A stretch of DNA of 64,000 nt from the NCBI GenBank assembly GCA_964536215.1, contig CAZHWT010000001.1, forward strand, positions 15,671-79,670, in the 5' to 3' direction. The position numbers were made by a program, and so were the translations under genes. Below, piece after piece: positions 6,939-64,000 of this stretch. Source of the DNA: an uncultured Candidatus Saccharibacteria bacterium. Its GTDB lineage: Bacteria; Patescibacteriota; CAZHWT01. The notes under the pieces were generated by a model. The model searched no databases. It was not told where the DNA came from and saw nothing but the letters and a program-made list of their open reading frames with translations. Positions within the stretch are counted from its first letter, which is position 1. Every line of letters starts with the position of its first letter.

Positions 6939-7161
6939 CCAAATAACGTCTAAGGGACGCGAAGCTGAGGTGTTACCGCGACGACCAAGTGACCCAGCTA
7001 ACGTTCAGGCGCTTTGGCGACCAGGGCAGCTTCGCTATCGGGCTATCTGCCCAGATTGCGGACTGACTCAAGCGTCGCCTTCACTCAGATCGTCCGATGC
7101 TGAGGATTGGCTTCAGGCTCACCGTATACAGTGCGGCAGTCTCAGTCCAGCCTGCGACTGA
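6925..7161 (+). CDS. Hypothetical Cys-rich small protein (CPDCG ... HRIQCGSLSPAC), possible zinc ribbon
   Basis: Translationally coupled to the upstream ORF. Four cysteines in a CxxC...C...C arrangement. Confidence 0.3.
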   Translation: MGLINQITSKGREAEVLPRRPSDPANVQALWRPGQLRYRAICPDCGLTQASPSLRSSDAEDWLQAHRIQCGSLSPACD

Positions 7162-7375
7162 GCTATGCCTTATGGCGGAACAGTTTCTGTTCCGCCAACT
7201 TTTATAAAAAAGGATAATGAAGCATAAACATCCCAACCTTACGCCTGCTACCTGGCTACCTTGCAATCTTGCAACCTAAAGTCATTTGACATCTCTCGCT
7301 CAGAGGCGGATAATACGTGCCATGCACCAGCCAGGCATACAAACGATTACCACCATTAAGATTAAGATGACCGGA

Positions 7376-7464
7376 ACGAAAGTTTACGGAGGTAAGAGTT
7401 TAGCCTAGCCATTTTTTAAATTTAGAAATCGACTAAAAGCTCTTCCTCCCGGAAGAGCTTTTTT
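7376..7464 (+). ncRNA. sRNA-like / attenuator-like element E2 (paralog of E1): ACGGAGGTAAGAGTTTAGCCTA ... gctcttcctcccggaagagc plus T6
   Basis: Same conserved motif and the same architecture as 6293..6376. 8-bp stem with tccc loop followed by tttttt. Confidence 0.3.
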
Positions 7465-7602
7465 AATTTGCAGTATGTTGAGGAGGTAGAAATGGGAAGG
7501 TAAGCATAAAGGTAAAAGCGGTTTCAGCTGATGCGCTTTAAGATCTTAGAGCGCATCATTGGCACCGTGGGCACCGAAAGAGACATTCAAAAGGAGACGG
7601 AG

Positions 7603-7914
7603 ATGGCTAGTATTACTGGCCAATCAATTCAAACGTCGCTGCTAGTAGTCAGGACGCAAGCCATGCATCGGATCATTTGCCATTGCCGAGAGAGAGGGCC
7701 GAGAGATGGCCGGCTGAGACCAACTCTGTGTCAGATGCAGCATCGAGACTTGGCTGAAGTCTGCCTTATGCTGCAACAACACTGGCAGGAGAATCATCCC
7801 GAACTGATGATTGAGCCGGTCATGTTTCATAGCATGAGCCGGGCCAAGTTGCTGACATGGCTGAGAGGGTCTGGCTATGACGTCCAGCAGTACCCAGTAG
7901 AGGAGAGAGTCTAG
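7603..7914 (+). CDS. Hypothetical protein (ORF track 7531..7914; probable start at ATG 7603 after aaggagacggag)
   Basis: Good SD before ATG 7603. Followed immediately by a strong hairpin terminator. Confidence 0.35.
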   Translation: MASITGQSIQTSLLVVRTQAMHRIICHCRERGPRDGRLRPTLCQMQHRDLAEVCLMLQQHWQENHPELMIEPVMFHSMSRAKLLTWLRGSGYDVQQYPVEERV

Positions 7915-7915
7915 T

Positions 7916-7943
7916 TGGGGCAAAAACAACGCTGTTTTTGCCC
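7916..7943. terminator. Hairpin ggggcaaaaacaacgctgtttttgcccc (12-bp stem)
   Basis: Perfect inverted repeat directly after the stop codon at 7914. Confidence 0.55.
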
Positions 7944-7974
7944 CTTTCCCTTGACTGGAATGCTACGAATGGGT

Positions 7975-8052
7975 TTTTAGTTTGTGGTTTATAGTTTATA
8001 GTTATACGAATGATACGAATTGCCATAACCCATTAACGATAAACGATAAACG
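7975..8052. repeat. AT-rich short tandem repeats (ggtttttagtttgtggtttatagtttatag ... acgataaacgataaacgaat)
   Basis: Member of the dispersed GGTTTATGG/TAGTTTAT and CGATAAA 7-mer repeat family. Also seen at 32385-32500, 44976-45010, 45575-45620, 47535-47565 and 54634-54720. Confidence 0.6.
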
Positions 8053-8058
8053 AATTAT

Positions 8059-10140
8059 ATGTCTCCAGATACGTCCGTTGCTACTTTGCCATTTGTTGGC
8101 ACTAAATATGAACAGCTTTTAGCCCACTTGGGCATTAAAACAGTGCGCGATTTGCTGTATCACTTGCCGTCACGATATGTGGACTTATCCAAAATGACAC
8201 CAATTGAAGATTTGGTGGAGGGTGAGTTGCAGGTGGTTAAGGCCAAGGTGGAGTCGATTAAAAAGGTTCGACTTAAGGGAGGTGGGCGAGTGATGATTAC
8301 GGCAACGGCTTCGGATGATACTGATCAATTGCAGTTAACTTGGTTTAATCAGCCGTATATGGAAAAGTCGCTCACAGTGGGCCAGGACTACCGCTTTGCT
8401 GGCGAGCCAGAGTTTAAGTTTGGCAAGTTTCAGATGACCAGCCCTACCCATGAACTGGCCAGCAAACCCATGGTCCATACAGGTAGAATTGTGCCTATTT
8501 ACCCACTAACAGCCGGAGTGACATCAAAATGGTTGAGGGCGCGAATTGCTCCGTTATTACCCAAAGTCGAAGTGGTCGTGCCGGAATTTTTACCAGACGC
8601 TATTCTGTCCAAGTATGATTTAGCCTCATTGCCTGAAGCTATTAGACACCTACACGCGCCAGAGACCATGGAGCAGGCTGGCATAGCCAGACGACGACTG
8701 GCATTTAATGAACTGCTTTTATTGCAACTGGCTTCCTTGCAGCGAAAAATGGCCCAGGGTCAGAGTGCCGCAGCGCCAGCACTGAGAGTGGGGAGAAAGG
8801 AGATAAGAGAGTGGGTTATGGGTTTGCCCTTTGACTTAACTGAGGCTCAGCAAAAAGTCATTGATGAAATTACAACTGATTTAGCAAAGAGTCAACCAAT
8901 GAATCGCCTGGTTGAGGGTGATGTTGGTTCGGGTAAAACAGTGGTGGCTGCGGCCGCGGCTTTGGCGGCGGCGTTTAATGGTTACCAGACGGCCGTAATG
9001 GCACCAACATCGGTGTTGGCGCAGCAACACTATCAAACGTTTCAAGCATTACTTGAGGGTGCAAGGGTGCGAGCGGGCGAGGCGGCGAGGAGAGCATCCC
9101 AGACATTGGATGAAGAGACTAAACCTGAGGGCCGAGAGTTGAGACCCGTTAGCGTTGCTTTGCGGACGGCCAAATCCAAGATGCCGCCAGCGGATATTAC
9201 CATTGGTACACACGCCTTGATTGCCAGTGGGGTAGAGTTTGAGGCTTTGGGACTGGTGATTATTGATGAGCAGCACCGATTTGGTGTAGCACAGCGAGCC
9301 GAATTAATGAGCAAGGCTGGGCACGGAGTCCATTTGTTGTCTATGACTGCCACACCAATCCCGCGGACCCTGGCTTTGACAGCTTATGGCGACTTGGATT
9401 TATCGATTATTGATCAGATGCCAGCCAACAGACTGCCTATCAAAACACACGTTGTGCCAGAGCATAAACGAGCCGATATGGAAGACTACCTTGATGCGGC
9501 TATGGCCAGAGGAGAGCAGGTCTTTATTGTCTGTCCGCTTATTGACGAGTCTGACAAGGTTACAGAAGTGCGAGCAGCTACGGCTGAGTTTGAGCGGCTC
9601 CAGCAAGTGTTTGGTCAACGGCGCTTAGCTTTATTGCACGGCCGGATGAAAGCAGCCGACAAAGACCAAATTTTGGCCGAGTTTAAGAATCATCAGTTTG
9701 ACGCTTTGGTGGCTACGCCAGTGGTAGAAGTAGGCATTGACGTACCTAACGCTACAATGCTGGTTATTGAAGGGGCAGAGCGATTTGGTTTGGCTCAGCT
9801 ACACCAGTTACGCGGTCGGGTTGGGCGTGGCGATAAACAATCGTATTGTTTTTTGTTGAGCGACGCTAAAAAGGCTAAGGACATTGCTAGATTGCGCCAT
9901 ATGGAGCATGAGTCAAGCGGCATTGCTCTGGCCGAGCTAGACTTGGCTACGCGCGGTCCCGGTGAAGTCTATGGGCACCGCCAGAGCGGTATTCCAGAGT
10001 TAAAAGCAGCCTCGTTTATGGATGTTGAGCTCACCCAAACTACGCATGAGGCTGCCGAAGGTCTTATTGCTAGCTTGAATAGTTATCCCAACTTAGAGCG
10101 GGAACTGAGTCGCACACAAAAGTTGGTTGAAATGAATTAG
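8059..10140 (+). CDS. recG: ATP-dependent DNA helicase RecG
   Basis: N-terminal wedge/OB region. Helicase motif I (GDVGSGKT), DEQH box (IIDEQHRFG). C-terminal helicase domain. 693 aa. Confidence 0.85.
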   Translation: MSPDTSVATLPFVGTKYEQLLAHLGIKTVRDLLYHLPSRYVDLSKMTPIEDLVEGELQVVKAKVESIKKVRLKGGGRVMITATASDDTDQLQLTWFNQPYMEKSLTVGQDYRFAGEPEFKFGKFQMTSPTHELASKPMVHTGRIVPIYPLTAGVTSKWLRARIAPLLPKVEVVVPEFLPDAILSKYDLASLPEAIRHLHAPETMEQAGIARRRLAFNELLLLQLASLQRKMAQGQSAAAPALRVGRKEIREWVMGLPFDLTEAQQKVIDEITTDLAKSQPMNRLVEGDVGSGKTVVAAAAALAAAFNGYQTAVMAPTSVLAQQHYQTFQALLEGARVRAGEAARRASQTLDEETKPEGRELRPVSVALRTAKSKMPPADITIGTHALIASGVEFEALGLVIIDEQHRFGVAQRAELMSKAGHGVHLLSMTATPIPRTLALTAYGDLDLSIIDQMPANRLPIKTHVVPEHKRADMEDYLDAAMARGEQVFIVCPLIDESDKVTEVRAATAEFERLQQVFGQRRLALLHGRMKAADKDQILAEFKNHQFDALVATPVVEVGIDVPNATMLVIEGAERFGLAQLHQLRGRVGRGDKQSYCFLLSDAKKAKDIARLRHMEHESSGIALAELDLATRGPGEVYGHRQSGIPELKAASFMDVELTQTTHEAAEGLIASLNSYPNLERELSRTQKLVEMN

Positions 10141-10420
10141 TGTCTGTTTTGATACTAATTAAGGAGCTCTCTGAGGGTATGGCCCAATGCGCACATCGCC
10201 CAGTCTGACAACGCCCCTCTTTACAACTGAGAAAAATAGAGTTATAACAAAGGCTCACAGGACTACATTGCCAGCAAGCTGGCTACGCACAGAAGGAGAG
10301 CCTGTCGTGAAAAAGTTCCTGACCGAAGTTTGGGCCAACCTTATTAAGTTGGTTCGGCTCGACGACGATTGTCGGACAACCTCTCGGCGTTCATAATATG
10401 ACGTCGCATGTCCCTATCTT

Positions 10421-10456
10421 AAGCCATCTCTAGCGTCCTAGAGATGGCTTTTTAAT
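10421..10456 (+). terminator. Rho-independent terminator (aagccatctctag cgtc ctagagatggctt plus T-run)
   Basis: 13-bp stem followed by tttttaatt. Confidence 0.55.
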
Positions 10457-12894: not shown

Positions 12895-13140
12895 ATGAAT
12901 GAAATAATCAATCGAATTAATCAACATATTTCCGACTCTTTTGGTGTTGAAGTTGAAGATATTCACCCGGATGACGATCTGCGACAGGATCTTAACGGAT
13001 CAGAGTTAGAGTTAGCTGACTTCATCTCGTTACTAGAGCACGAATTTCATGTCGAGATTAGCGGCGAAGAGATTCGTCAACTTACCACAATATCAGACTT
13101 GTATGATCTACTCCTCGATAAGCTCAATGAAATAGGATAA
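12895..13140 (+). CDS. Acyl carrier protein-like
   Basis: 81 aa. Acidic four-helix pattern with a putative phosphopantetheine Ser in DLNGSELELADFISLLEHEF. Confidence 0.45.
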   Translation: MNEIINRINQHISDSFGVEVEDIHPDDDLRQDLNGSELELADFISLLEHEFHVEISGEEIRQLTTISDLYDLLLDKLNEIG

Positions 13141-14799: not shown

Positions 14800-15501
14800 T
14801 TAGAATGGGTTGTCTTTACCGGTAATAGTTTGAGCCGAGGTTGGAGCGTATGATGCCAAGTGCAATGAATCAATAGCTGTCAATGTTGCTTCTTTAGCTG
14901 ATGTGCGCTGTGGTAGCGGCTCTTCAGCTGGTCCAAGGTCCTCCGGGAACGGCTGGTAAGGGCTAGAAACGTCAAAGGTGGCTACTAATGTCCCATCCTC
15001 GTCGCTCGACGGCACAATATGTAGACTGGTTAACGACACAACCCGAGCCACTGTTTCTGACTGTCGAATAAAGTTAACGATATTGGCATACCCACCCACA
15101 ACTGATAAGTTTGTCTCTACGGTACTGCCTGATTCAGTGTTTTTTACCACGGTTTTGTCCTGACCATATCGTACGCCTTGCGTGGAGGCTCCAGCACCCA
15201 CAGCTACTTGCTCCAGCGTTCCTAATAGACCAGCTGGATCAGCTTGCGAAGGAATGACTGGTTCAACTTTCTCGGTTAGCGTCGCTTTATTTTGTTCTGC
15301 CTGCAATCCTTGCAAAGCGGCCACTTTCTCCTTTAATGCGTCTAGCTTTGTCTGCTTGTCAGACATAGTTTTAAAGCTATCTTGTATATCCCCAACCCAT
15401 GGCAACGCTAAGAGTGGAATAACGGCAATAAGAATGACAGCCGCCGCAACGGGCATAATATATGGCTTAAAGCTATCAACGGTCATTGTAGGCGTGTTCA
15501 T
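14800..15501 (-). CDS. pilO: Type IV pilus assembly protein PilO-like
   Basis: N-terminal TM, then coiled coil, then periplasmic-type domain. Overlaps the pilN stop by 4 nt. Confidence 0.5.
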   Translation of the reverse strand: MNTPTMTVDSFKPYIMPVAAAVILIAVIPLLALPWVGDIQDSFKTMSDKQTKLDALKEKVAALQGLQAEQNKATLTEKVEPVIPSQADPAGLLGTLEQVAVGAGASTQGVRYGQDKTVVKNTESGSTVETNLSVVGGYANIVNFIRQSETVARVVSLTSLHIVPSSDEDGTLVATFDVSSPYQPFPEDLGPAEEPLPQRTSAKEATLTAIDSLHLASYAPTSAQTITGKDNPF

Positions 15502-16127
15502 GATTGGTCTCCGGTAGGGGTAGGGGTTGGTGTAGGTGTAGCACTGGGCAACGCAGCCAACGATTGAGGAGTCAGGCTGAAGGTTACGGTAAAGGCGATA
15601 GTGGAGGACTGGTCATCGCGGCCAATCATGACTAGGGCTGGTTTGGTGAAGTAGGGACTTTCCTCATTGTCTGAGGTAGCTCCTTGGGTGCGCAATTTAT
15701 CGTAGAAGCCGGCCAAGTCAGCATAGGTTGTAACTGTGCCCGAAATGGTGGCTATATCCGAAGCATCGACAGACATATCAGTTAACTGCATAGACGCAGG
15801 CACCGTTTGGCTAAATTGAGTTAGGAAGGTAGAGTAATGCTTTTGTGTCGCAAAAAAATTACTGAGCGATGTTAATTTGGTATCCAAGGCGCGGTAGACG
15901 CCTTCTGCCTCTTTGTACGTCTGCACTTTTTGTGTCTCGGTGTTTATGGAATTATCTATGCTAGTAAGGCTGGCCTGCAGGGCAAGTTTGCCGGCAAATA
16001 AACCGCCAACGGCCACAATCGTTATAATAAGAACGACGACGCTTACTGTAGTGAGCATCTTTTGTTGGCGAACTTTAGGGGTAACTTCGGCAGTTTGACT
16101 TGGTAAAAGGTTAATATCTTGGGCCAT
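15498..16127 (-). CDS. pilN: Type IV pilus assembly protein PilN-like
   Basis: INLLP motif at the N-terminus. Single TM. Sits downstream of pilM. Confidence 0.6.
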   Translation of the reverse strand: MAQDINLLPSQTAEVTPKVRQQKMLTTVSVVVLIITIVAVGGLFAGKLALQASLTSIDNSINTETQKVQTYKEAEGVYRALDTKLTSLSNFFATQKHYSTFLTQFSQTVPASMQLTDMSVDASDIATISGTVTTYADLAGFYDKLRTQGATSDNEESPYFTKPALVMIGRDDQSSTIAFTVTFSLTPQSLAALPSATPTPTPTPTGDQS

Positions 16128-16254
16128 GGACAGAATGGGTTATGTGTCTATTCTAGAGATATGCTTGTCTGCTTGTCAACTACTTAGATTCTGACTTACA
16201 GACTCTACCAGTAGCCTGGTCGCGACGGTGTGTGAATATGCCTCTCGTTATCGT

Positions 16255-17292
16255 TTAGCCTAACTCTTTCATGGCCAAGCCAACGGCAACTGCATATGAC
16301 GTTTCGTCTTCTTTGACCCGCTGCTGCAGCGATGAGGGAATTTCGACGCTTTGCCAAGGGGAGCCGATTTGTACTTCCAAGCCAATTGTCGTGGCCAAAT
16401 AGACCACCATACCGGGGAGATTAGCGGTACCTCCGACCAACACCACCCGCTTGATGGTATCAGAAGGGTGCCGAGTTTGGTAAAACAAAATAGCTCGTTG
16501 AATTTCTGAGGTGATGATGTCGAAGACTGGCTTGATTGCTTGCATAACCTTACCTTCCAGCTGGTCTTCAACTAGGCCATAATTTTTCTTGTATTCTTCG
16601 GCCTGTCCCATTTCAAAGCCTAAATCTTGAGCAATGGCTCTAGCTAGGGCAGACCCACCAGTGGCAATAGAGCGGGTAAAAGAAGTTACGCCACTGGAAA
16701 CGATGGCTAAGTCCGTCGTCGTAGCCCCCACTGAGATAATTAGCGTGGTCGGACCAGCATCCCGTCCATCTACCAGGGCCCGTTTAATGGCGATTGTTTC
16801 TGTTTCAAAAGAAATCGGGTTCAACTTAGCCTGTTTAAGCAGCCCGACATAGCGCTCAATAAGCGTATTGGGAGCGGCTACCAAATAGACGCTCATTTTG
16901 GCTCCAGGCTCTTTAGCCGTCGGCCGACTTAGCACCTGCCAAGAGAGCTTGACATCTTTTAGTGGGAGAGGGATATATTGCTCTGCTTCCCATTGAATGG
17001 CGTTAGCCAGCTCTTTGTCGCCCATGTTGGGGATTTCAATTACACGAGTAAAGATGGCTGACTCAGGAAAAGCCACAGCCACGTTAGTGCTGGTAATTTT
17101 AGCATCTTTGACCAGATTGCGAACCGCTTCGGACAGCGCGCCTTGATCCAATGGGGCATCTGAGGCGAGGGCATTGGGTGGGGTAGTAGCTTTACCAAAC
17201 GCCTGGAGAATAAATCTTTTATTCTCTCGTCGCAATTGGACCACCTTAATACTATGAGAACCGATATCTAAACCAAAATAATCTGAGGGCAT
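16255..17292 (-). CDS. pilM: Type IV pilus assembly protein PilM (actin-like ATPase)
   Basis: GLDIGSHSIKVV actin-fold N-terminus. 345 aa. Operon with pilN/pilO. Confidence 0.8.
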   Translation of the reverse strand: MPSDYFGLDIGSHSIKVVQLRRENKRFILQAFGKATTPPNALASDAPLDQGALSEAVRNLVKDAKITSTNVAVAFPESAIFTRVIEIPNMGDKELANAIQWEAEQYIPLPLKDVKLSWQVLSRPTAKEPGAKMSVYLVAAPNTLIERYVGLLKQAKLNPISFETETIAIKRALVDGRDAGPTTLIISVGATTTDLAIVSSGVTSFTRSIATGGSALARAIAQDLGFEMGQAEEYKKNYGLVEDQLEGKVMQAIKPVFDIITSEIQRAILFYQTRHPSDTIKRVVLVGGTANLPGMVVYLATTIGLEVQIGSPWQSVEIPSSLQQRVKEDETSYAVAVGLAMKELG

Positions 17293-46584: not shown

Positions 46585-46602
46585 GGTTTAAGGGTACAGG
46601 TT

Positions 46603-46672
46603 GAAGGTTGAAGGTTCAAGTGTTTTGAATTGAGCTGCACTCTAACCTTTAATCTTCAACCTACATATACCC
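46603..46672. repeat. Inverted repeat aggttgaaggttgaaggttcaag ... cctttaatcttcaacct immediately upstream of xerC
   Basis: ~17-nt arms built from GTTGAAG heptamer units. A related gtgaagggtgaagg / ccttcaccctt structure sits at 43338-43410. Confidence 0.45.
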
Positions 46673-47930
46673 AATCCTGGCATATCCTCTTGTCGAAAAA
46701 ACGTTTTGAAGGGGTAAACTGTCATCTTTTCCGCGTCCATCGCTTCTAGGGCCCTTGTAGGGCTTCGTATATGTTTTTTGCTTTTGCAGCAATAAATACT
46801 TACTTTTTAGTATCTACCCCCTATCTATAGCGTGGGCGACAGGGGAGTGGTAGGCAGGGAAATTCGACTATATCTGAGTATATTGAGCCATCTAGCATTC
46901 ATTTAGGCGGGAGAGGCTGTGGGGGAGACAATTGGCTGCATTTTTTAAGACATTTTCAACACGATTGTGCGCAAGCATGGCTGAAGGGGAAAATTTTGGC
47001 AAATTATTTGAAATATATTTTAATTGTCTATCAACGCATGGATGGCAGGAGGGGAGAGGAAAAATAATAATACTAGACGTCTTTAAATGTATCTTTAGAG
47101 ACGTCTAAGAGGAGTGAAACAGCCGGGGAAGAGGTGCGAGAGAGGGGCTTAGCTTTGAAGATGTGGTCATATTTTTATTAAATATGGCACTTGTATTGTT
47201 TGTTTTACGCTCAAGTTTGCTGAATTTGGCGAATCTTTCGGCCTGTCTTGGCTGGTTTGACTTAGGCTAACCGATTACCGCTTGTCTTTGAGGTCAGCAA
47301 CGGAGATATCTGAGTAAATCTGTGCTACGTATGCATGAATTAAGGCTTATCCACATAGCTTATTAGCAATCATTGTTAGTTGGTGTTAATTTTGGCATAT
47401 TTTTCAGCAAATTTTCCCTTTATTTTCCCCACAGCTTTGTGATGCTAGTTTGAGCAAGTGAAATTTTTTGAAATTTTGGTGAATTTTTTATGAGACCGGG
47501 GAGATGCTCTACTCTGGGGTGAGTGTGGACTTATGGTTGGTAGTTAATGGTTTATGGTTCGTAGCTTTTTATGACATGTGTGTAGTTGGAGAAAACTGCA
47601 TCAGACTAGATCATACCTTATTTTACTATAGGTCTCTTTATATGCTATAGTTTCCATATCTATGTTTCCATGTATATCCTATAGTTTTTTGTTATCGGTC
47701 TTCCCTCTTCCTTGCTAAGTCTCCCTATCTCACTCCCCTTTCTCTGAGGTCTGACACCAAATTCTTGGGCCAAGGTTTAGGTTAATTGGGCTATTTTGAC
47801 CCTATTTGTTGTGCGCCTGCGCCCAGCATGCAGGTAGTGTTTGATTGTTTTTCAATCTGATGCAGCTACTTGAGCTTCTGCATGCATTATACTACTATAG
47901 GCTTTTTTCTATGCGCCTCTCGCCTACTCT

Positions 47931-48707
47931 TTAGGTCCAGGCGCTTACAAAGTACAACACGACAATAATGATTCCACTGATAAATAAATACTGCTGTTGC
48001 ATGGCGCTTGAGAGCTGGCGGGCCTGTTGGTAATGAATGAGGCCAATGATCATGCTTATGCCTCCAGCTAAGCACAGACTAGTCATAAAACTTACAGGCC
48101 AAAATGCTAGGATGGCGGCTAGTTGAGCCGCTAGCAAGGCAACTAAGAACGACCAACCAATGCTATGGGTACTGCTGCGAGATAGTTTGGCCGCCCATAA
48201 TAACGGCCAACTTACCATCCAAGAAATACCCGCCACGGAGATAATCCACTCTCCTATATTCGGCAGCATGGACAACACGAGGTAAATTAAAGCGAATACA
48301 TATACCATGCCCATTAGGCTCATGACGGTTAAGGCTTGCCGGGCTAATGGGAGCGGCCTAACTGTGGCAACATTGAGAATGTTGAGGGTAAGAATTATAC
48401 CGTAATACCCCAAACTAAAAAGACCTACACTGGTCCAAACTAACCATGACGGTACGTGAAGCCAGTGCAGCCCCCAGTAGGCGGTTAGACTGAGTAACAG
48501 AGCATACAACGGAACAATGGCCCACTCCTCTGCTCTAAGGTCAAAGTCTAGCACCCAGACGGTAGCCAGGTACGTTATGATGAGGAAAGGGATGAGACTC
48601 CAGCCACCTAAAGGCCACATAATAGTGGCAGCGAGACAAGCACTCAAGCCAATAGCGCTGATAACAAATTTTTGTCTTTTAACGGAACGTAGGTCGAATG
48701 AGGACAT
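47931..48707 (-). CDS. Hypothetical polytopic membrane protein (~8 TM)
   Basis: 258 aa, Trp-rich hydrophobic helices. No family recognised. Confidence 0.45.
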   Translation of the reverse strand: MSSFDLRSVKRQKFVISAIGLSACLAATIMWPLGGWSLIPFLIITYLATVWVLDFDLRAEEWAIVPLYALLLSLTAYWGLHWLHVPSWLVWTSVGLFSLGYYGIILTLNILNVATVRPLPLARQALTVMSLMGMVYVFALIYLVLSMLPNIGEWIISVAGISWMVSWPLLWAAKLSRSSTHSIGWSFLVALLAAQLAAILAFWPVSFMTSLCLAGGISMIIGLIHYQQARQLSSAMQQQYLFISGIIIVVLYFVSAWT

Positions 48708-59948: not shown

Positions 59949-60326
59949 TTAGGCGTGATTGGCAGCTAGGAAGTTGCGAACTTCGTTGAGGACTTGGTCG
60001 GGGGCCATGGCAGATTTTATAAGATAGCCGACGGCTCCAGATTCGGAGGCTTCTTTAATTAAGGCCTCTTGTCCCAAGTTGGTCAACATGACAATTTGAC
60101 CAGCTCGCTTTTTGTCATCTGGAGACAGCTCCTTTAATACAGCTATGCCGTCTTTTTTGGGCATCATAATGTCCAATAGCACCAGGTCAAATTTGCCGTT
60201 GCGAATAGCGGCGATGGCCTCCTCCCCATCCACTACCGTGGTAATCTGATAATCTTCTTGGGAGAGGATATCTTGATATAGGTCGCGTAAAAATTGATCG
60301 TCTTCAACAACTAGAATGTGAGCCAT
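59949..60326 (-). CDS. Stand-alone response-regulator receiver domain (CheY-like). Start at ATG 60326 (MAHILVVEDD).
   Basis: Phospho-acceptor Asp in LVLLDIMMP plus the conserved K. No output domain. The ORF-track N-terminal extension is rejected. Confidence 0.7.
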   Translation of the reverse strand: MAHILVVEDDQFLRDLYQDILSQEDYQITTVVDGEEAIAAIRNGKFDLVLLDIMMPKKDGIAVLKELSPDDKKRAGQIVMLTNLGQEALIKEASESGAVGYLIKSAMAPDQVLNEVRNFLAANHA

Positions 60327-60387
60327 GACTATAGTGTAGCATATCACTGTAAAGATTATAAGACCCGAGGAGAAAGGTGCAAGGTTC

Positions 60388-60545
60388 AGGTGTCCAAATG
60401 CCAAGTTAGGTAAGCGTCAAGATTCAAGAGTTCAAATGTCAAAGGAAGGTAGAAGAAGTAAGGTATACGTAATTTTTACGACTTGAAGCTTACGTCTTTG
60501 TTTGGTATTTGGACTCTTGAATCTTGGCATTTGGATTCTGGTGGC
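60388..60545. repeat. ~160-bp imperfect palindrome built from TCTTGGCATTTGGA(C/T)TCT-type units between the kinase and regulator genes
   Basis: Left arm gtccaaatgccaag...gattcaagagttcaaatgtcaaagg. Right arm tttggtatttggactcttgaatcttggcatttggattct. The same ttggcatttggattcttg motif occurs at 54770-54800. Confidence 0.5.
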
Positions 60546-60555
60546 TTACGTCTTT

Positions 60556-62742
60556 TTATATTGGATGGTAAATGTGAGGCTTGGTGGATGATGGAGCGGT
60601 TTTGGCTTCGGTAATGGGTAGGCTAAAGAAAAAGGTGGAGCCCTCCCCTACTTGGCTGTCGACCCAAATCTTACCTTTGGATAGGCTGATAAATTGCTGA
60701 CAGAGGTATAGGCCAAGGCCAGTGCCCGGGATGCCAGCGGTGCTGGCTAAGCGGCTGAATTTTTGGAAGAGGCGCTTTTGGTCTTCTGGGCTTATGCCAG
60801 GCCCGGTGTCAGTGATAGCGGTGACGAGGTGTTTTTTATCTGAGTAAAACTGAATGGTGATGCTACCGCCGGGTGGGGTAAATTTGAGGGCGTTGCCAAT
60901 AAGGTTGGTGAGGACTTGGTGAATCTTGTCTGGGTCGCACATGACTTGAGGGAGACGGCTGGCGGCTTTAATGGTTAATTTCTGTTGGTTTTCTAGGGCT
61001 TTGGGGGTTAACTCCTCTACTACTTGTTTAGTTAAGGCTGGCAATTTGGTTGGCTCGGGGTTGAGCTGTACTCTCCCCGATTCGATGCGAGAGATGTCGA
61101 GCGTATCATTGACCAGGCCAATCAATCGCTCCGAGGATATATAGGCGCGGTCCATGTACTGCTTAAAGTTCTCATCTCGGCGCTTGGCGTGCATGGCCAT
61201 CCACAAATAGCCTCTGATGGCAGTTAGTGGAGTGCGCAATTCATGAGAAGTGACCGAAATAAACTCATCTTTCAGCTTGTCCAGCTGCTCTAGCTGATGA
61301 TTCTTGCGCGTTAATTGCTCGTTAGCCGCCTGCAACTCCTTAGTCGCCTTATTTACTTCACTACGCAACGTCTCGTTAAACTGACTTACTTGCTGGTAAC
61401 TAAGCGCATTTTCAATTGCAACAGCTAACTCAGGGCCAAGTATCTCCAGAACTTCAAGATCTTGGGTAGTGTATACGTCGCCAGATTGCTTATTGCCTAA
61501 CACAATCAAACCGCTGACGGTTTGATTATTAGCAAAGGGCACAATGACGGCTATTTCTTTCTGTTTCATTAGTTCAGACAGCTCACCATCTTCAGCGTCT
61601 GATGCATACGTATCTCGGGCAGTTAGAAACTGTGCCATCGTCTTGGTGTCAAGTTGACTAATCTCCTGATAATCCTGTTGGGCTAATAGTTGAAGCTTTC
61701 CTTCGCTGGTTATAAAGATGGCGGCTTTTTGAATATGAACTGTCGTAATGAGTTCATTTAAAACTGATTGAGTCAGGGTGCGGATATTTAATGTGCTCGA
61801 TATTAGTCGGGACAAGTTAGCCAGTAGGGCGCTAGAGCTGTAGTGATCTTTAAAAAATATCCTCTCGGTAACATGATCAAAAAAGTGTTTGACTGGCTGG
61901 AAAGTAAAGGCCATAAAAACAGCCATAATTGTATAAGCTACTTGCTGTGGTATTGTGCTCTGAGCATGCGGAAAGAAGCTGTCAACTACGCGAAAAACAA
62001 TTAAGCCATACGCTAGCCCCATAGATGTAATAACTAGTACATAGGCTAGTAATCTTGCAACTACCAATCTTATATCAAATAGACCATGTTTTATGATGGC
62101 ATAGGCAACTGATCCTGTAAAAAACACCGTTACTAGAGGACCCAGTTTGGCAATTTGCCAATCATTAATAGCTACGGGGATAATAACATTTGTCAACAGG
62201 GCGATACCTACGCTGGCGATAATACCCAGAGAGATAAGCTTAGCTTGTGTAGATATAATTGGACTGGATGCTTTTCTTAATTTGTTTAAATTATAGGTGA
62301 TTAAAACTAAAGAGCCGCCCAATAGTGCCACATATAAATAGTATAAAGGTCCGACCAAAATATTAGTTATGCTCCCTTGTATACTTACTCCCTCTGTTAC
62401 TAGCGAACTGGCGGAAAAAATGGACCCAATGAACCACAAGGCAATATAGGAAACTTTTTCCCGTAGAGTACTTGTTTTTCTTGTCTCGAAATACCGTGTA
62501 AATATAGCCAGCCAGTATAGAATGTTAAATCCTGCAAGCAAGGTTACCTTGGTCGACGCAAGCCTTAAATTGGGGGTGGCTGCGTGGTCGATAAGATAAT
62601 TAAATAGCGACCATACGACTATCGAGATACACGCTGCAAAGAAAATCTTTGTCGTAGATACTTTTGTGTTACGCAAAAAAACAATCAGACCCAAGCTGAG
62701 GTTAATACTTATAGCTATTGCAAGTATAGCGATATCTATCAT
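60556..62742 (-). CDS. Sensor histidine kinase with polytopic N-terminal membrane domain, GAF-like domain, HisKA and HATPase_c
   Basis: H-box SHELRTPLTAIRGY. G-boxes (DTGPGISPED, GTGLGLYLCQ). ~8 N-terminal TM helices. 728 aa. Confidence 0.8.
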   Translation of the reverse strand: MIDIAILAIAISINLSLGLIVFLRNTKVSTTKIFFAACISIVVWSLFNYLIDHAATPNLRLASTKVTLLAGFNILYWLAIFTRYFETRKTSTLREKVSYIALWFIGSIFSASSLVTEGVSIQGSITNILVGPLYYLYVALLGGSLVLITYNLNKLRKASSPIISTQAKLISLGIIASVGIALLTNVIIPVAINDWQIAKLGPLVTVFFTGSVAYAIIKHGLFDIRLVVARLLAYVLVITSMGLAYGLIVFRVVDSFFPHAQSTIPQQVAYTIMAVFMAFTFQPVKHFFDHVTERIFFKDHYSSSALLANLSRLISSTLNIRTLTQSVLNELITTVHIQKAAIFITSEGKLQLLAQQDYQEISQLDTKTMAQFLTARDTYASDAEDGELSELMKQKEIAVIVPFANNQTVSGLIVLGNKQSGDVYTTQDLEVLEILGPELAVAIENALSYQQVSQFNETLRSEVNKATKELQAANEQLTRKNHQLEQLDKLKDEFISVTSHELRTPLTAIRGYLWMAMHAKRRDENFKQYMDRAYISSERLIGLVNDTLDISRIESGRVQLNPEPTKLPALTKQVVEELTPKALENQQKLTIKAASRLPQVMCDPDKIHQVLTNLIGNALKFTPPGGSITIQFYSDKKHLVTAITDTGPGISPEDQKRLFQKFSRLASTAGIPGTGLGLYLCQQFISLSKGKIWVDSQVGEGSTFFFSLPITEAKTAPSSTKPHIYHPI

Positions 62743-63593
62743 GATTGAGGTTTCATATCAGGACTAAAATCAACCACCTGGTCTAGATCTTTACCGTTAA
62801 TGATTTTCTGGAAGTAATATTCGCTTTTTTCTTTAAATGAATCTTTTAAGCGTGTAACATCCACAATAATGGGAGTACTGGCATCCGACCCTAAATAATA
62901 TTTAGATTCGGCTATTGGATGGTAGTCAAATCCGATATGCTTAAGATATCTCAATACAGTGTCATCAATGACTGCTACCCAGTTTTTTATATCATTGTTC
63001 ACAGAGTGTTTGCAAAGACTATAATACAGTGATAGAGAGGTCTTACGATGTTCTTTAGTGCCTCTATATTCAGGAGCCACTGCTAACGCGCCGATATCCC
63101 AAGTCCGATCCAAATCTAAGCCATATGTACCACAGATTTTATCAATAGGTATATTCCATTCATTTTCTATATCCACAAGCGATTTTAGGCCTACTTCTGA
63201 ATTTTTGATAACTCTAACAACACCTTCGGGGAGTTTTTCCTGCTGATCTATAGCAGTAATAAACTGACTAGAATTCTCATACGCTCCATACTCTTCATCG
63301 AGCTGATTGGCTGTATTTTCAAACTTCTCATAGAATACACTGCTTTCTACAGAGCGCGATAGGTTGGAATATTTACTTTGACCGTCGATCAGATATATGC
63401 CTGAAGGCTTAGGGTTAGCTGGATTAATGCTGTGCCGCTCTAGGAATTGAGAGACTTCTTTCTGAATATCACTCTTCTCACGTATTTCATAGCTTGGCAA
63501 AAACTTTTGGTCGGAGCGATCTTCGCCTTTTTCCTCTCCCCGACCGGGAATATTAAAGTCTGAGCCCATGAAGCCTGATTCACCGAACGGCAT
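62739..63593 (-). CDS. Hypothetical protein with GNAT-like motif (ALAVAPEYRG). Possible acyltransferase.
   Basis: 284 aa. AT-rich coding sequence. Only a motif-A-like V-x-P-E-Y-R-G segment is recognisable. Confidence 0.3.
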   Translation of the reverse strand: MPFGESGFMGSDFNIPGRGEEKGEDRSDQKFLPSYEIREKSDIQKEVSQFLERHSINPANPKPSGIYLIDGQSKYSNLSRSVESSVFYEKFENTANQLDEEYGAYENSSQFITAIDQQEKLPEGVVRVIKNSEVGLKSLVDIENEWNIPIDKICGTYGLDLDRTWDIGALAVAPEYRGTKEHRKTSLSLYYSLCKHSVNNDIKNWVAVIDDTVLRYLKHIGFDYHPIAESKYYLGSDASTPIIVDVTRLKDSFKEKSEYYFQKIINGKDLDQVVDFSPDMKPQS

Positions 63594-63595
63594 GG

Positions 63596-63970
63596 CTAAA
63601 AGTCCTTAAACGCAATATCGGTTGTGTTAAAAAACTCTTGCGTAAAACTGACCGCGTCTTGGCTGGAAAATTCTTTGCAAGTATAAATGTCTACACTGAA
63701 GAATACAAAAGGTTCATCCCAGGCGTAGAAATGAGCTCCAGATGTCTCCCAATGTATCCATCCCGCCCATCCGAAGCGGTCAGAACGATGGGTGATTGGC
63801 TCAATAAGAGTTTTCATCTTTAAAACACTCGACAACTCAGAAAGATATCTCTTTATATCACTATCTTCAATACGCTTATTACAGGTACCTTCTACTACCA
63901 TGCGTTGACGGTAAATGCTGGGCGCTAAATCTCTCATGTTTATGGTCTGATTATGACCAGAATTGGTCAA
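63596..63970 (-). CDS. S-adenosylmethionine decarboxylase (SpeH/AdoMet_dc family)-like small protein, divergent
   Basis: Alignable core WETSGAHFYAWDEPFVFFSVDIYTCK versus SpeH [24 protein letters not shown]. The processing Ser is conserved but the preceding Glu is replaced by Thr. 124 aa. Confidence 0.35.
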   Translation of the reverse strand: MTNSGHNQTINMRDLAPSIYRQRMVVEGTCNKRIEDSDIKRYLSELSSVLKMKTLIEPITHRSDRFGWAGWIHWETSGAHFYAWDEPFVFFSVDIYTCKEFSSQDAVSFTQEFFNTTDIAFKDF

Positions 63971-64000
63971 TTCAAGATTATTTTTTTGTTTGTTATTTTT

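Follow-up and report, generated by a model that had tools for sequence, protein, structure and literature searches.

What do a small protein with the fold of S-adenosylmethionine decarboxylase (AdoMetDC), an acyltransferase, a polytopic sensor kinase and a CheY-like regulator do side by side? This question is raised by the end of a 64,000-nucleotide stretch of DNA, here called the window, from an uncultured Candidatus Saccharibacteria bacterium (assembly GCA_964536215.1, contig CAZHWT010000001.1, positions 15,671 to 79,670 of the forward strand). We use the working names A1 for the small AdoMetDC-like protein and A2 for the acyltransferase of 284 amino acids; coordinates are given in window numbering (1-64,000), and all genes of the cassette lie on the minus strand. 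Our reading, to which we give a probability of about 45%, is that the four genes form one cassette, which would encode a two-enzyme synthase of an N-acyl-amine signal together with the cognate receptor, the signal being most likely a lipid-like amide. The function of the cassette is here read from comparative inference only.

A scan of one genome per species returned at least 396 loci encoding A1, and we examined the neighbourhoods of the 80 best. In 68 of them, the next gene downstream of A1 on the same strand belongs to the A2 family. In four loci (L060, L067, L074 and L084) the two proteins are naturally fused into one of 310-388 amino acids, in which the C-terminus of A1 (...EFEEF) runs straight into A2. 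The fusion in L074 retains the AdoMet_dc match, and a gene for an AMP-binding acyl-CoA synthetase precedes the fusions in L067 and L074. A functional link between A1 and A2 is supported by this adjacency and by the fusions. A1 changes far more slowly than A2, with mean p-distances of 0.32 and 0.74 among Saccharibacteria.

The synteny of the cassette is conserved across Saccharibacteria. These loci lie on low- to mid-GC contigs, and their typical order is FolD, (a Mur ligase), a divergent gene for a regulator with a REC domain, then A1, A2 and a kinase with HisKA_7TM and GAF domains (7TM-GAF kinase), and finally a CLIPPER/PKD surface protein. The 7TM-GAF kinase follows A2 in 29 of the 80 loci, at about +850 nucleotides (nt), with a REC gene nearby.

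The kinase is linked to the enzymes not only by position. We compared pairwise divergence across 25 genomes with complete A1, A2 and kinase, in an analysis that ignores the tree. The divergence of A2 correlates with that of the membrane sensor of the kinase (r = 0.83); the corresponding values are 0.33 for the GAF domain, 0.29 for the catalytic core and 0.24 for A1. With the catalytic core controlled for, A2 and the sensor have a partial correlation of 0.81 (permutation p <= 0.0005). When five genomes with a divergent A2 subtype are left out, r is 0.70 for the sensor versus 0.55 for the core, and the partial correlation is 0.54. This pattern is what would be expected for a signal synthase and a receptor that are matched in specificity, and it parallels a compositional boundary inside the kinase gene, described below. 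Together with the adjacency, the four fusions and the 29 syntenic loci, it makes a small-molecule signalling module built on an acylated amine, one of the options in the original prediction that was made from the letters of this DNA, the best reading of the locus.

Some loci depart from the typical layout. Two or three paralogous 7TM-GAF kinases stand in tandem downstream of a single A1-A2 pair in L037 (7000-14300) and L023 (7000-12500), which might mean several receptors for related ligands. In L019 (3656-7000) and L041 (6992-10500), A1 is followed by an opposite-strand gene of ~300 amino acids, next by genes of ~280 and ~100 amino acids and last by a shorter kinase (478-484 amino acids), which replace A2 and the 7TM kinase. 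The A1 of L009 (GCA_033792395.1, JARAUW010000001.1, 958 kb) is named 'S-adenosylmethionine decarboxylase [Streptomyces caniscabiei]' at NCBI; the contig has a GC of 0.51 and the full Saccharibacteria synteny (DUF5684, FolD, REC, A1, A2, kinase, CLIPPER), and probably either its taxonomic label is wrong or the sample was associated with Streptomyces and yielded a Saccharibacteria genome.

In the window, the genes are transcribed in the order A1, A2, kinase of 728 amino acids and REC-only regulator. The features are:

63938-64000, minus: start of the AT-rich 5' leader and promoter region of the cassette (L001 2228-2570, GC 0.33-0.34; family start MRDLAP / MKDLAP)
63596-63937, minus: A1, AdoMetDC (SpeH/SpeD class 1b) fold, 113 amino acids; invariant motif GWAGWIHWE(T/S)SGAHFYAW, with Ser66 at the canonical processing position
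62739-63593, minus: A2, GNAT-superfamily acyltransferase of the LuxI / FeeM / Acetyltransf_5 branch, 284 amino acids; relatives 25-41% identical, fast-evolving
60556-62742, minus: whole sensor kinase, 728 amino acids, with HisKA_7TM, GAF, HisKA and HATPase_c
61843-62742, minus: polytopic membrane sensor of the kinase, residues 1-300; HisKA_7TM (PF16927, E 5.7e-7) and further hydropathy spans
61408-61785, minus: cytoplasmic GAF domain of the kinase, residues 320-445; GAF_3, GAF and GAF_2 at E 2e-5 to 5e-4, under gathering scores
60556-61272, minus: catalytic core of the kinase, HisKA (residues 491-556; PF00512, E 2.3e-17) and HATPase_c (residues 603-711; PF02518, E 8.3e-29)
60391-60535, minus: long imperfect hairpin in the spacer between kinase and regulator, from RNA folding
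59949-60326, minus: REC-only (CheY-like) regulator, probably 125 amino acids from the ATG (MAHILVVEDD); PF00072, E 1.1e-24

Several details of the gene boundaries had to be revised. The original prediction gave the SpeH-like protein 124 amino acids; the open reading frame (ORF) listed for it, 63596-63970, has no upstream in-frame stop within the window, and gene calls elsewhere have 138 or 153 amino acids. Since most of the best relatives have exactly 113 amino acids and begin with M(K/R)DLAP, the true start is the ATG at 63937, and the calls of 124, 138 and 153 amino acids are over-extensions; the in-frame extension of A1 inside the leader (63938-64000) is non-coding. The spacings of 4 and 3 nt that were first reported are actually a 4-nt overlap between the stop codon of A2 and the ATG of the kinase (ATGA) and a 2-nt gap between A1 and A2 (TAG CC ATG). 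It had further been expected that the locus continues beyond the window. Six metagenomic contigs with an identical 284-residue protein reach past the window end, and beyond 64 kb they carry only ~220 bp of AT-rich non-coding DNA, over which the cassette leader runs on, and then unrelated genes of ~50% GC (a small hypothetical protein, a DksA/TraR zinc-finger protein, a membrane protein and an M16-type peptidase-like protein, the last assigned by sequence, without a profile test). Apart from the promoter region, the window holds the whole cassette.

The description of the kinase as a polytopic GAF histidine kinase stands: HisKA_7TM, HisKA and HATPase_c are matched, the GAF matches stay below gathering scores, and the hydropathy profile has about 8-9 hydrophobic spans. 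The regulator, on the other hand, is not the orphan that it had been called, as it follows its kinase 151-229 nt downstream on the same strand; with HisKA and HATPase_c in the kinase and a REC domain in the nearby partner, the two have the make-up of a two-component system. PF00072 covers residues 30-139 of the listed regulator ORF of 151 amino acids, the TTG start of which (60404) falls within the hairpin. This hairpin of ~145 nt was folded in the segment 60325-60560 at -55 kcal/mol (z -5.1), and 0 of 200 shuffles were as stable. There is no second copy of it within the window, and a scan against Rfam returned no family, only sub-threshold matches to plant microRNA precursors that are probably due to chance. 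The hairpin could serve in attenuation, termination or processing and so uncouple the expression of kinase and regulator. The regulator lies here downstream of the kinase, versus divergent and upstream in the usual Saccharibacteria layout, and the cassette as a whole lies outside the usual FolD/Mur/REC...CLIPPER neighbourhood.

What kind of enzyme could A1 be? It matches the Pfam family AdoMet_dc (PF02675) with 37.6 bits (cut-off 25, E 3e-9), in agreement with the SpeH-like identity first suggested for it, and it has the alpha-beta sandwich fold of the prokaryotic AdoMetDC proenzyme. The SpeH equivalog model TIGR03330 is not reached (19.4 vs 75.65 bits). A word-indexed homology search with A1 gave 2,775 relatives, the best 120 of which are 64-72% identical; in the PDB, neither a sequence search nor a profile search retrieved an AdoMetDC, and the matches to RRM domains that came up are due to chance. 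We aligned the A1 family profile to the AdoMetDC of T. maritima, the sequence of which was checked against 1tlu. Ser66 of A1 falls on the processing Ser63, at the strand-turn-strand junction; it is invariant in 26 A1-family sequences, and it is part of the pattern GWIHWE[TS]S with which the 396 A1 loci were retrieved. The earlier observation that the processing Ser is kept and the preceding Glu replaced by Thr is borne out, with Ser66 and Thr65 aligned to Ser63 and Glu62, but it had missed a change that matters more, which is that the catalytic His68 is replaced by an invariant Tyr71. Cys83 and Glu11 are kept as Cys87 and Glu16, and Ser55 corresponds to Ala58. Near Ser66 there are three further invariant residues, His62, Glu64 and His69 (two positions before Tyr71), which could stand in for the absent His68.

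In the T. maritima proenzyme, S63, H68 and C83 are essential for self-processing, and they were expected to be conserved in the descendants that decarboxylate ornithine or arginine (Li et al. 2023, PMC10407285). A1 thus belongs to the fold and to the Pfam family but misses one defining catalytic feature. It shares with the class 1b enzymes (SpeH/SpeD) the fold, the size, the Pfam membership and the invariant equivalents of the processing Ser, Cys83 and Glu11, and differs from them in the Tyr at H68 and in its linkage to an acyltransferase and to signalling proteins; speE, hss and speY were not found as neighbours of A1. The neofunctionalised ornithine and arginine decarboxylases SpeDC and SpeDA (Li et al. 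2023, PMC10407285) are a precedent for AdoMetDC homologues that have changed their substrate. The database name 'S-adenosylmethionine decarboxylase' probably misleads reconstructions of the polyamine pathway in these genomes.

The closest relative of A1 by E-value (P0003, JGI 3300072015; 68% identity) is encoded without A2 or the kinase. Its neighbours are genes for a TraC/VirB4-like ATPase, a type IV secretion system pilin and a phage integrase, and from this context it follows that A1 can travel on a conjugative element.

The identity of A2 was harder to establish. A Pfam scan of the 284 amino acids gave no match, PF00765 included, and the GNAT-like nature that had been proposed from a motif is upheld by the relatives and the structure, not by a Pfam match of A2 itself. 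A word-indexed homology search returned only A2, and an exhaustive one gave 580 cluster representatives with 25-41% identity. Among 69 of these relatives there are weak matches to Acetyltransf_5 (PF13444; 38), Autoind_synth (PF00765; 4, best E 5e-4), FeeM (3) and TIGR03694 (52). A2 itself matches TIGR03694 weakly (37.1 bits vs a cut-off of 111.95), and it reaches the curated cut-off of none of the models for N-acyl amide synthases (FeeM PF21926, PF13444 and TIGR03694), on which its relatives score weakly too. The predicted structure (predicted local distance difference test, pLDDT, 92) has a LuxI-type fold, closest to FeeM and LuxI enzymes and not to SpeG. A profile search of the PDB gave only a marginal match to LasI (E 0.35), and a profile alignment of A2 to LasI covers nearly the whole enzyme (probability 83%, E 8.5e-6).

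This alignment can be read at the positions R23, F27, W33, D44, D47, R70, E101, S103 and R104 (LasI numbering), which, from LasI and EsaI structures, we take to be conserved in LuxI enzymes. F27, D47 (E in A2), R70 (the invariant R127) and E101 (D166) are kept or conservatively replaced, and R23 (the invariant E83), W33 (N93), D44 (G), S103 and R104 are lost. D166 is a candidate for the catalytic acid, and R127 is the structural Arg. If the assumed LuxI residues are the right ones, the changed N-terminal pocket for S-adenosylmethionine (SAM) suggests an amine acceptor other than the alpha-amino acid moiety of SAM. A2 is an acyltransferase of the LuxI/FeeM branch but not a bona fide synthase of N-acyl homoserine lactones (AHL). 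It differs from the LuxI-type AHL synthases (LasI, EsaI, TofI, RpaI, MesI) in these SAM-pocket residues, in having no PF00765 match and about 60 extra N-terminal residues, and in that an AdoMetDC-fold protein always accompanies it or is fused to it; we know of no LuxI enzyme that needs such a partner. From FeeM and the N-acyl amino acid synthases, from Acetyltransf_5 and from the exosortase-associated acyltransferase TIGR03694 it is set apart by scores far under the curated cut-offs, and to our knowledge no N-acyl amino acid synthase is coupled to a pyruvoyl-decarboxylase homologue.

Put together, the cassette might work as follows. A1, a homologue of pyruvoyl-type decarboxylases, would turn SAM or another amino acid into an amine, provided that it is catalytically competent. 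SAM is the obvious substrate given the fold, and arginine, ornithine or another amino acid would be possible, as in the neofunctionalised SpeD enzymes. A2 would N-acylate this amine from an acyl-acyl carrier protein (acyl-ACP) or from acyl-CoA; the identities of the amine and of the acyl donor we infer from the two enzyme families. If A1 does use pyruvoyl chemistry, decarboxylation must come before acylation, because the Schiff base needs a free amine. The lipophilic or amphipathic N-acyl amine could partition into or across the membrane and, as a signal, be bound and detected by the polytopic sensor region of the 7TM-GAF kinase, which would then phosphorylate the single-domain regulator encoded just downstream.

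An ACP gene (PP-binding, E 1.3e-9) lies at 12895-13140 on the plus strand, between nusB and rnc, and, like the acyl-CoA synthetase beside the fusions, it would fit an acyl-ACP or acyl-CoA donor. The window also holds a pilM-pilN-pilO cluster for type IV pilus assembly (14800-17292, minus strand). The ACP gene is relevant to acyl donors, and the pil cluster to possible outputs of the CheY-like regulator.

The enzyme pair is found in a second phylum, Actinomycetota, which is the phylum that hosts Saccharibacteria. The high-GC loci belong to it (Acidimicrobiia, Actinomycetes and Thermoleophilia), some of them on complete chromosomes of 3.5-3.7 Mb, and they are without the kinase. Instead, a polytopic GGDEF-EAL membrane protein adjoins the pair in 27 of the 41 high-GC loci, either convergent or co-directional, one version of it with extra PAS domains. 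The same pair of enzymes is here coupled to a protein of cyclic di-guanosine monophosphate (c-di-GMP) signalling and not to a kinase. Two further clusters, c21 and c24, looked like conserved genes in the high-GC loci and were set aside as likely antisense artefacts of crude ORF calling.

A1 is 67% identical within each phylum and 64% between them, and a neighbour-joining tree of A1 resolves only broad phylum blocks. Since the identity between the phyla is so near to that within them, and since the tree has only these broad blocks, the pair appears to have crossed between the phyla of epibionts and hosts, mostly long ago. The assembly of a cultured isolate, Mycolicibacterium sphagni ATCC 33027 (L079, NZ_NOZR01000023.1), carries a Saccharibacteria-type cassette of A1, A2 and kinase (7001-10422), with a kinase that shares 47% identity with its counterparts in L009 and L010. 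The cassette is surrounded by WXG100-like and other mycobacterial-looking genes at 0.52-0.59 GC, near a contig end; it could be a transfer from epibiont to host, and the isolate offers a tractable carrier organism.

Several points weigh against a signal synthase with a matched receptor. Part of the correlation between A2 and the sensor could come from a shared recombination history, as A2 adjoins the part of the kinase gene that encodes the sensor. The distances are near saturation (p-distance about 0.7), the sample is 25 genomes, and kinship is ignored. An hhalign comparison of the two membrane sensors, that of the kinase and that of the GGDEF-EAL protein, detected no homology (probability 2.7%), and on this value the idea that both use the same sensor domain was ruled out. 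The self-processing of A1 and its decarboxylase activity are only putative, since the canonical His68 and Ser55 are replaced and since A1 lies so far under the SpeH cut-off. The literature on the A1 and A2 families names no product, substrate or ligand for any member. Finally, enzymes of the PF13444 type also make structural aminolipids.

This last point leads to an unlikely alternative, namely that A1 supplies a decarboxylated head group for an N-acyl amine which A2 makes in the manner of OlsB or of a palmitoylputrescine synthase, and which has a structural or antibiotic role and not that of a signal. The kinase or the GGDEF-EAL protein would then regulate or respond to the state of the envelope, without being a dedicated receptor. 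The weak PF13444 matches in 38 of 69 A2 relatives speak for it, as this family includes both aminolipid and N-acyl amide synthases, and so does the acyl-CoA synthetase beside the A1::A2 fusions; moreover, the lipid metabolism of Saccharibacteria is reduced, and an unusual lipid is plausible. What such a lipid leaves unexplained is why A2 tracks the membrane sensor of the kinase, why two unrelated polytopic signalling proteins were recruited in two phyla and why there is a translational coupling with the kinase through ATGA.

The absence of His68 also allows A1 to be a non-processing subunit with the AdoMetDC fold, comparable to the trypanosome prozyme or to the domain at the N-terminus of spermine synthase. 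With SAM or some other ligand bound, it would serve A2 as a partner that presents the substrate or has a regulatory role; the product could then be AHL-like or otherwise derived from SAM. We have considerable doubts about this. Ser66, Cys87 and Glu16 are invariant at catalytic positions, as are His62, Glu64 and His69, and an identity of about 64% across two phyla suggests a constrained active site; A2, for its part, has lost several residues of the LuxI SAM pocket.

Very little speaks for plain polyamine metabolism, in which A1 would be a bona fide SAM decarboxylase, A2 an acetyltransferase similar to SpeG or SSAT, and the two-component system a mere neighbour. No spermidine-synthase-like gene is present among the conserved neighbours in about 80 loci, A1 is far under the SpeH threshold and without His68, and A2 is closest to FeeM/LuxI enzymes and not to SpeG. 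The fusion with an acyltransferase of long-chain type and the acyl-CoA synthetase point to long acyl chains.

Potentially, the four genes could have nothing to do with each other and just share a piece of foreign DNA. The drop in GC at the end of the window, from which the original prediction had derived a horizontally acquired terminal island, is real: GC is 0.377 in 62001-63000 and 0.405 in 63001-64000, where the remaining window has about 0.49, and the low-GC stretch measures no more than about 2.6 kb. The composition is atypical at synonymous sites as well. The GC content at third codon positions (GC3) is 0.35 in A2, 0.376 in kinase residues 1-450 (sensor and GAF) and 0.41 in A1, as compared with 0.494 +/- 0.048 (mean +/- standard deviation, SD) in 49 window genes. 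The explanation of the low GC as a mere amino-acid effect of the membrane spans was ruled out, because the third codon positions are low too. In the catalytic half of the kinase GC3 is 0.58, and in the regulator 0.50; the compositional boundary lies inside the kinase gene and not at the ends of genes or of an island.

The same is seen in 17 other Saccharibacteria loci, where the GC3 offset relative to the other genes of the same genome is -0.07 for A1, -0.08 for A2 and -0.07 for the kinase sensor, and +0.02 for the catalytic half of the kinase, so that on average the boundary again lies in the kinase. This depression is independent of the GC3 of the other genes (0.32-0.74). ARAGORN found no tRNA gene beside the cassette, and among the called genes beside it there is no integrase or transposase; direct-repeat boundaries were not searched. 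We conclude that low GC is a property of the cassette, and it does not point to a recent island in this genome; a variable segment that evolves fast and possibly recombines could be behind it.

A recently acquired AT-rich island with functionally uncoupled genes would agree with GC and GC3 values 2-3 SD below those of the window genes and with a neighbourhood that differs from the usual one, but it is hardly credible, and recent acquisition was rejected, in view of the gene order kept in 29 Saccharibacteria-type loci, the GC3 depression in the 17 other genomes, the lack of an adjoining tRNA or mobility gene among those called and the boundary inside the kinase gene. Horizontal transfer does appear to have taken place at a much deeper level, as judged from a pair that is common to Saccharibacteria and Actinomycetota at about 64% identity. 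Elsewhere in the window, the kilobase 47001-48000 ranks second for low GC (0.392, AT skew -0.207); it falls in the stretch 46585-47930, where the crude caller gave no ORF of at least 100 amino acids.

How does the proposed synthase and receptor compare with known systems? In the luxM-luxN and cqsA-cqsS loci, an autoinducer synthase is paired with a polytopic sensor kinase, and here likewise a synthase gene would adjoin a multi-span kinase. The hypervariable agr and com cassettes have a variable part made of the synthase and the sensor half of the kinase, and a conserved catalytic half, which is the division that we see here in composition and in divergence. Unlike all of these, the present cassette draws on other enzyme families, would need two enzymes for the synthesis, places a GAF domain between the sensor and the kinase and ends in a regulator with nothing but a REC domain, and it is known from sequences alone.

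That LuxI-like genes stand beside kinases in genomes of the candidate phyla radiation (CPR) is already known, from the in silico study of Bernard et al. (2020, PMC7567580), which lists 18 LuxI homologues adjacent to a sensory kinase. Among them are Saccharibacteria proteins with PF00765 and neighbouring kinases, for example OGL33891.1, and these are probably members of the same cassette. The passages of its main text consulted here speak of no Actinomycetota counterpart, fusions or co-diversification, and the word 'decarboxylase' is absent from those of its supplementary files that were searched. The study predicted AHL production, which the active-site map of A2 does not support. We found no published description of the AdoMetDC-fold partner, the fusions, the actinobacterial GGDEF-EAL counterpart, the His68-to-Tyr signature or the co-diversification, and literature on the pair, on Saccharibacteria with AdoMetDC, or on PF13444 or PF02675 in such a context gave no characterisation.

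How the ultrasmall, host-dependent Saccharibacteria find and recognise their actinobacterial hosts and regulate the association with them is an open question, and the cassette is a concrete and widespread candidate for a part of the answer, with at least 396 species-level genome loci. It combines a two-enzyme synthase without a characterised member, a receptor that diversifies alongside it and a mirror in the host phylum that is linked to c-di-GMP, and from it one would expect an acylated amine of a new type as well as a new use for the AdoMetDC fold. A more daring idea, and one that we regard as rather doubtful, is that Saccharibacteria and Actinomycetota share an unrecognised chemical language, that is, a new class of N-acyl autoinducers made from a decarboxylated amino acid and possibly derived from decarboxy-SAM. 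If this were true, the hosts would read the signal through the polytopic GGDEF-EAL protein, and thus through c-di-GMP, and the epibionts through 7TM-GAF kinases that co-evolve with it. In epibiosis, the cassette would then serve to recognise hosts, to eavesdrop or to set up strain-specific 'pherotypes'.

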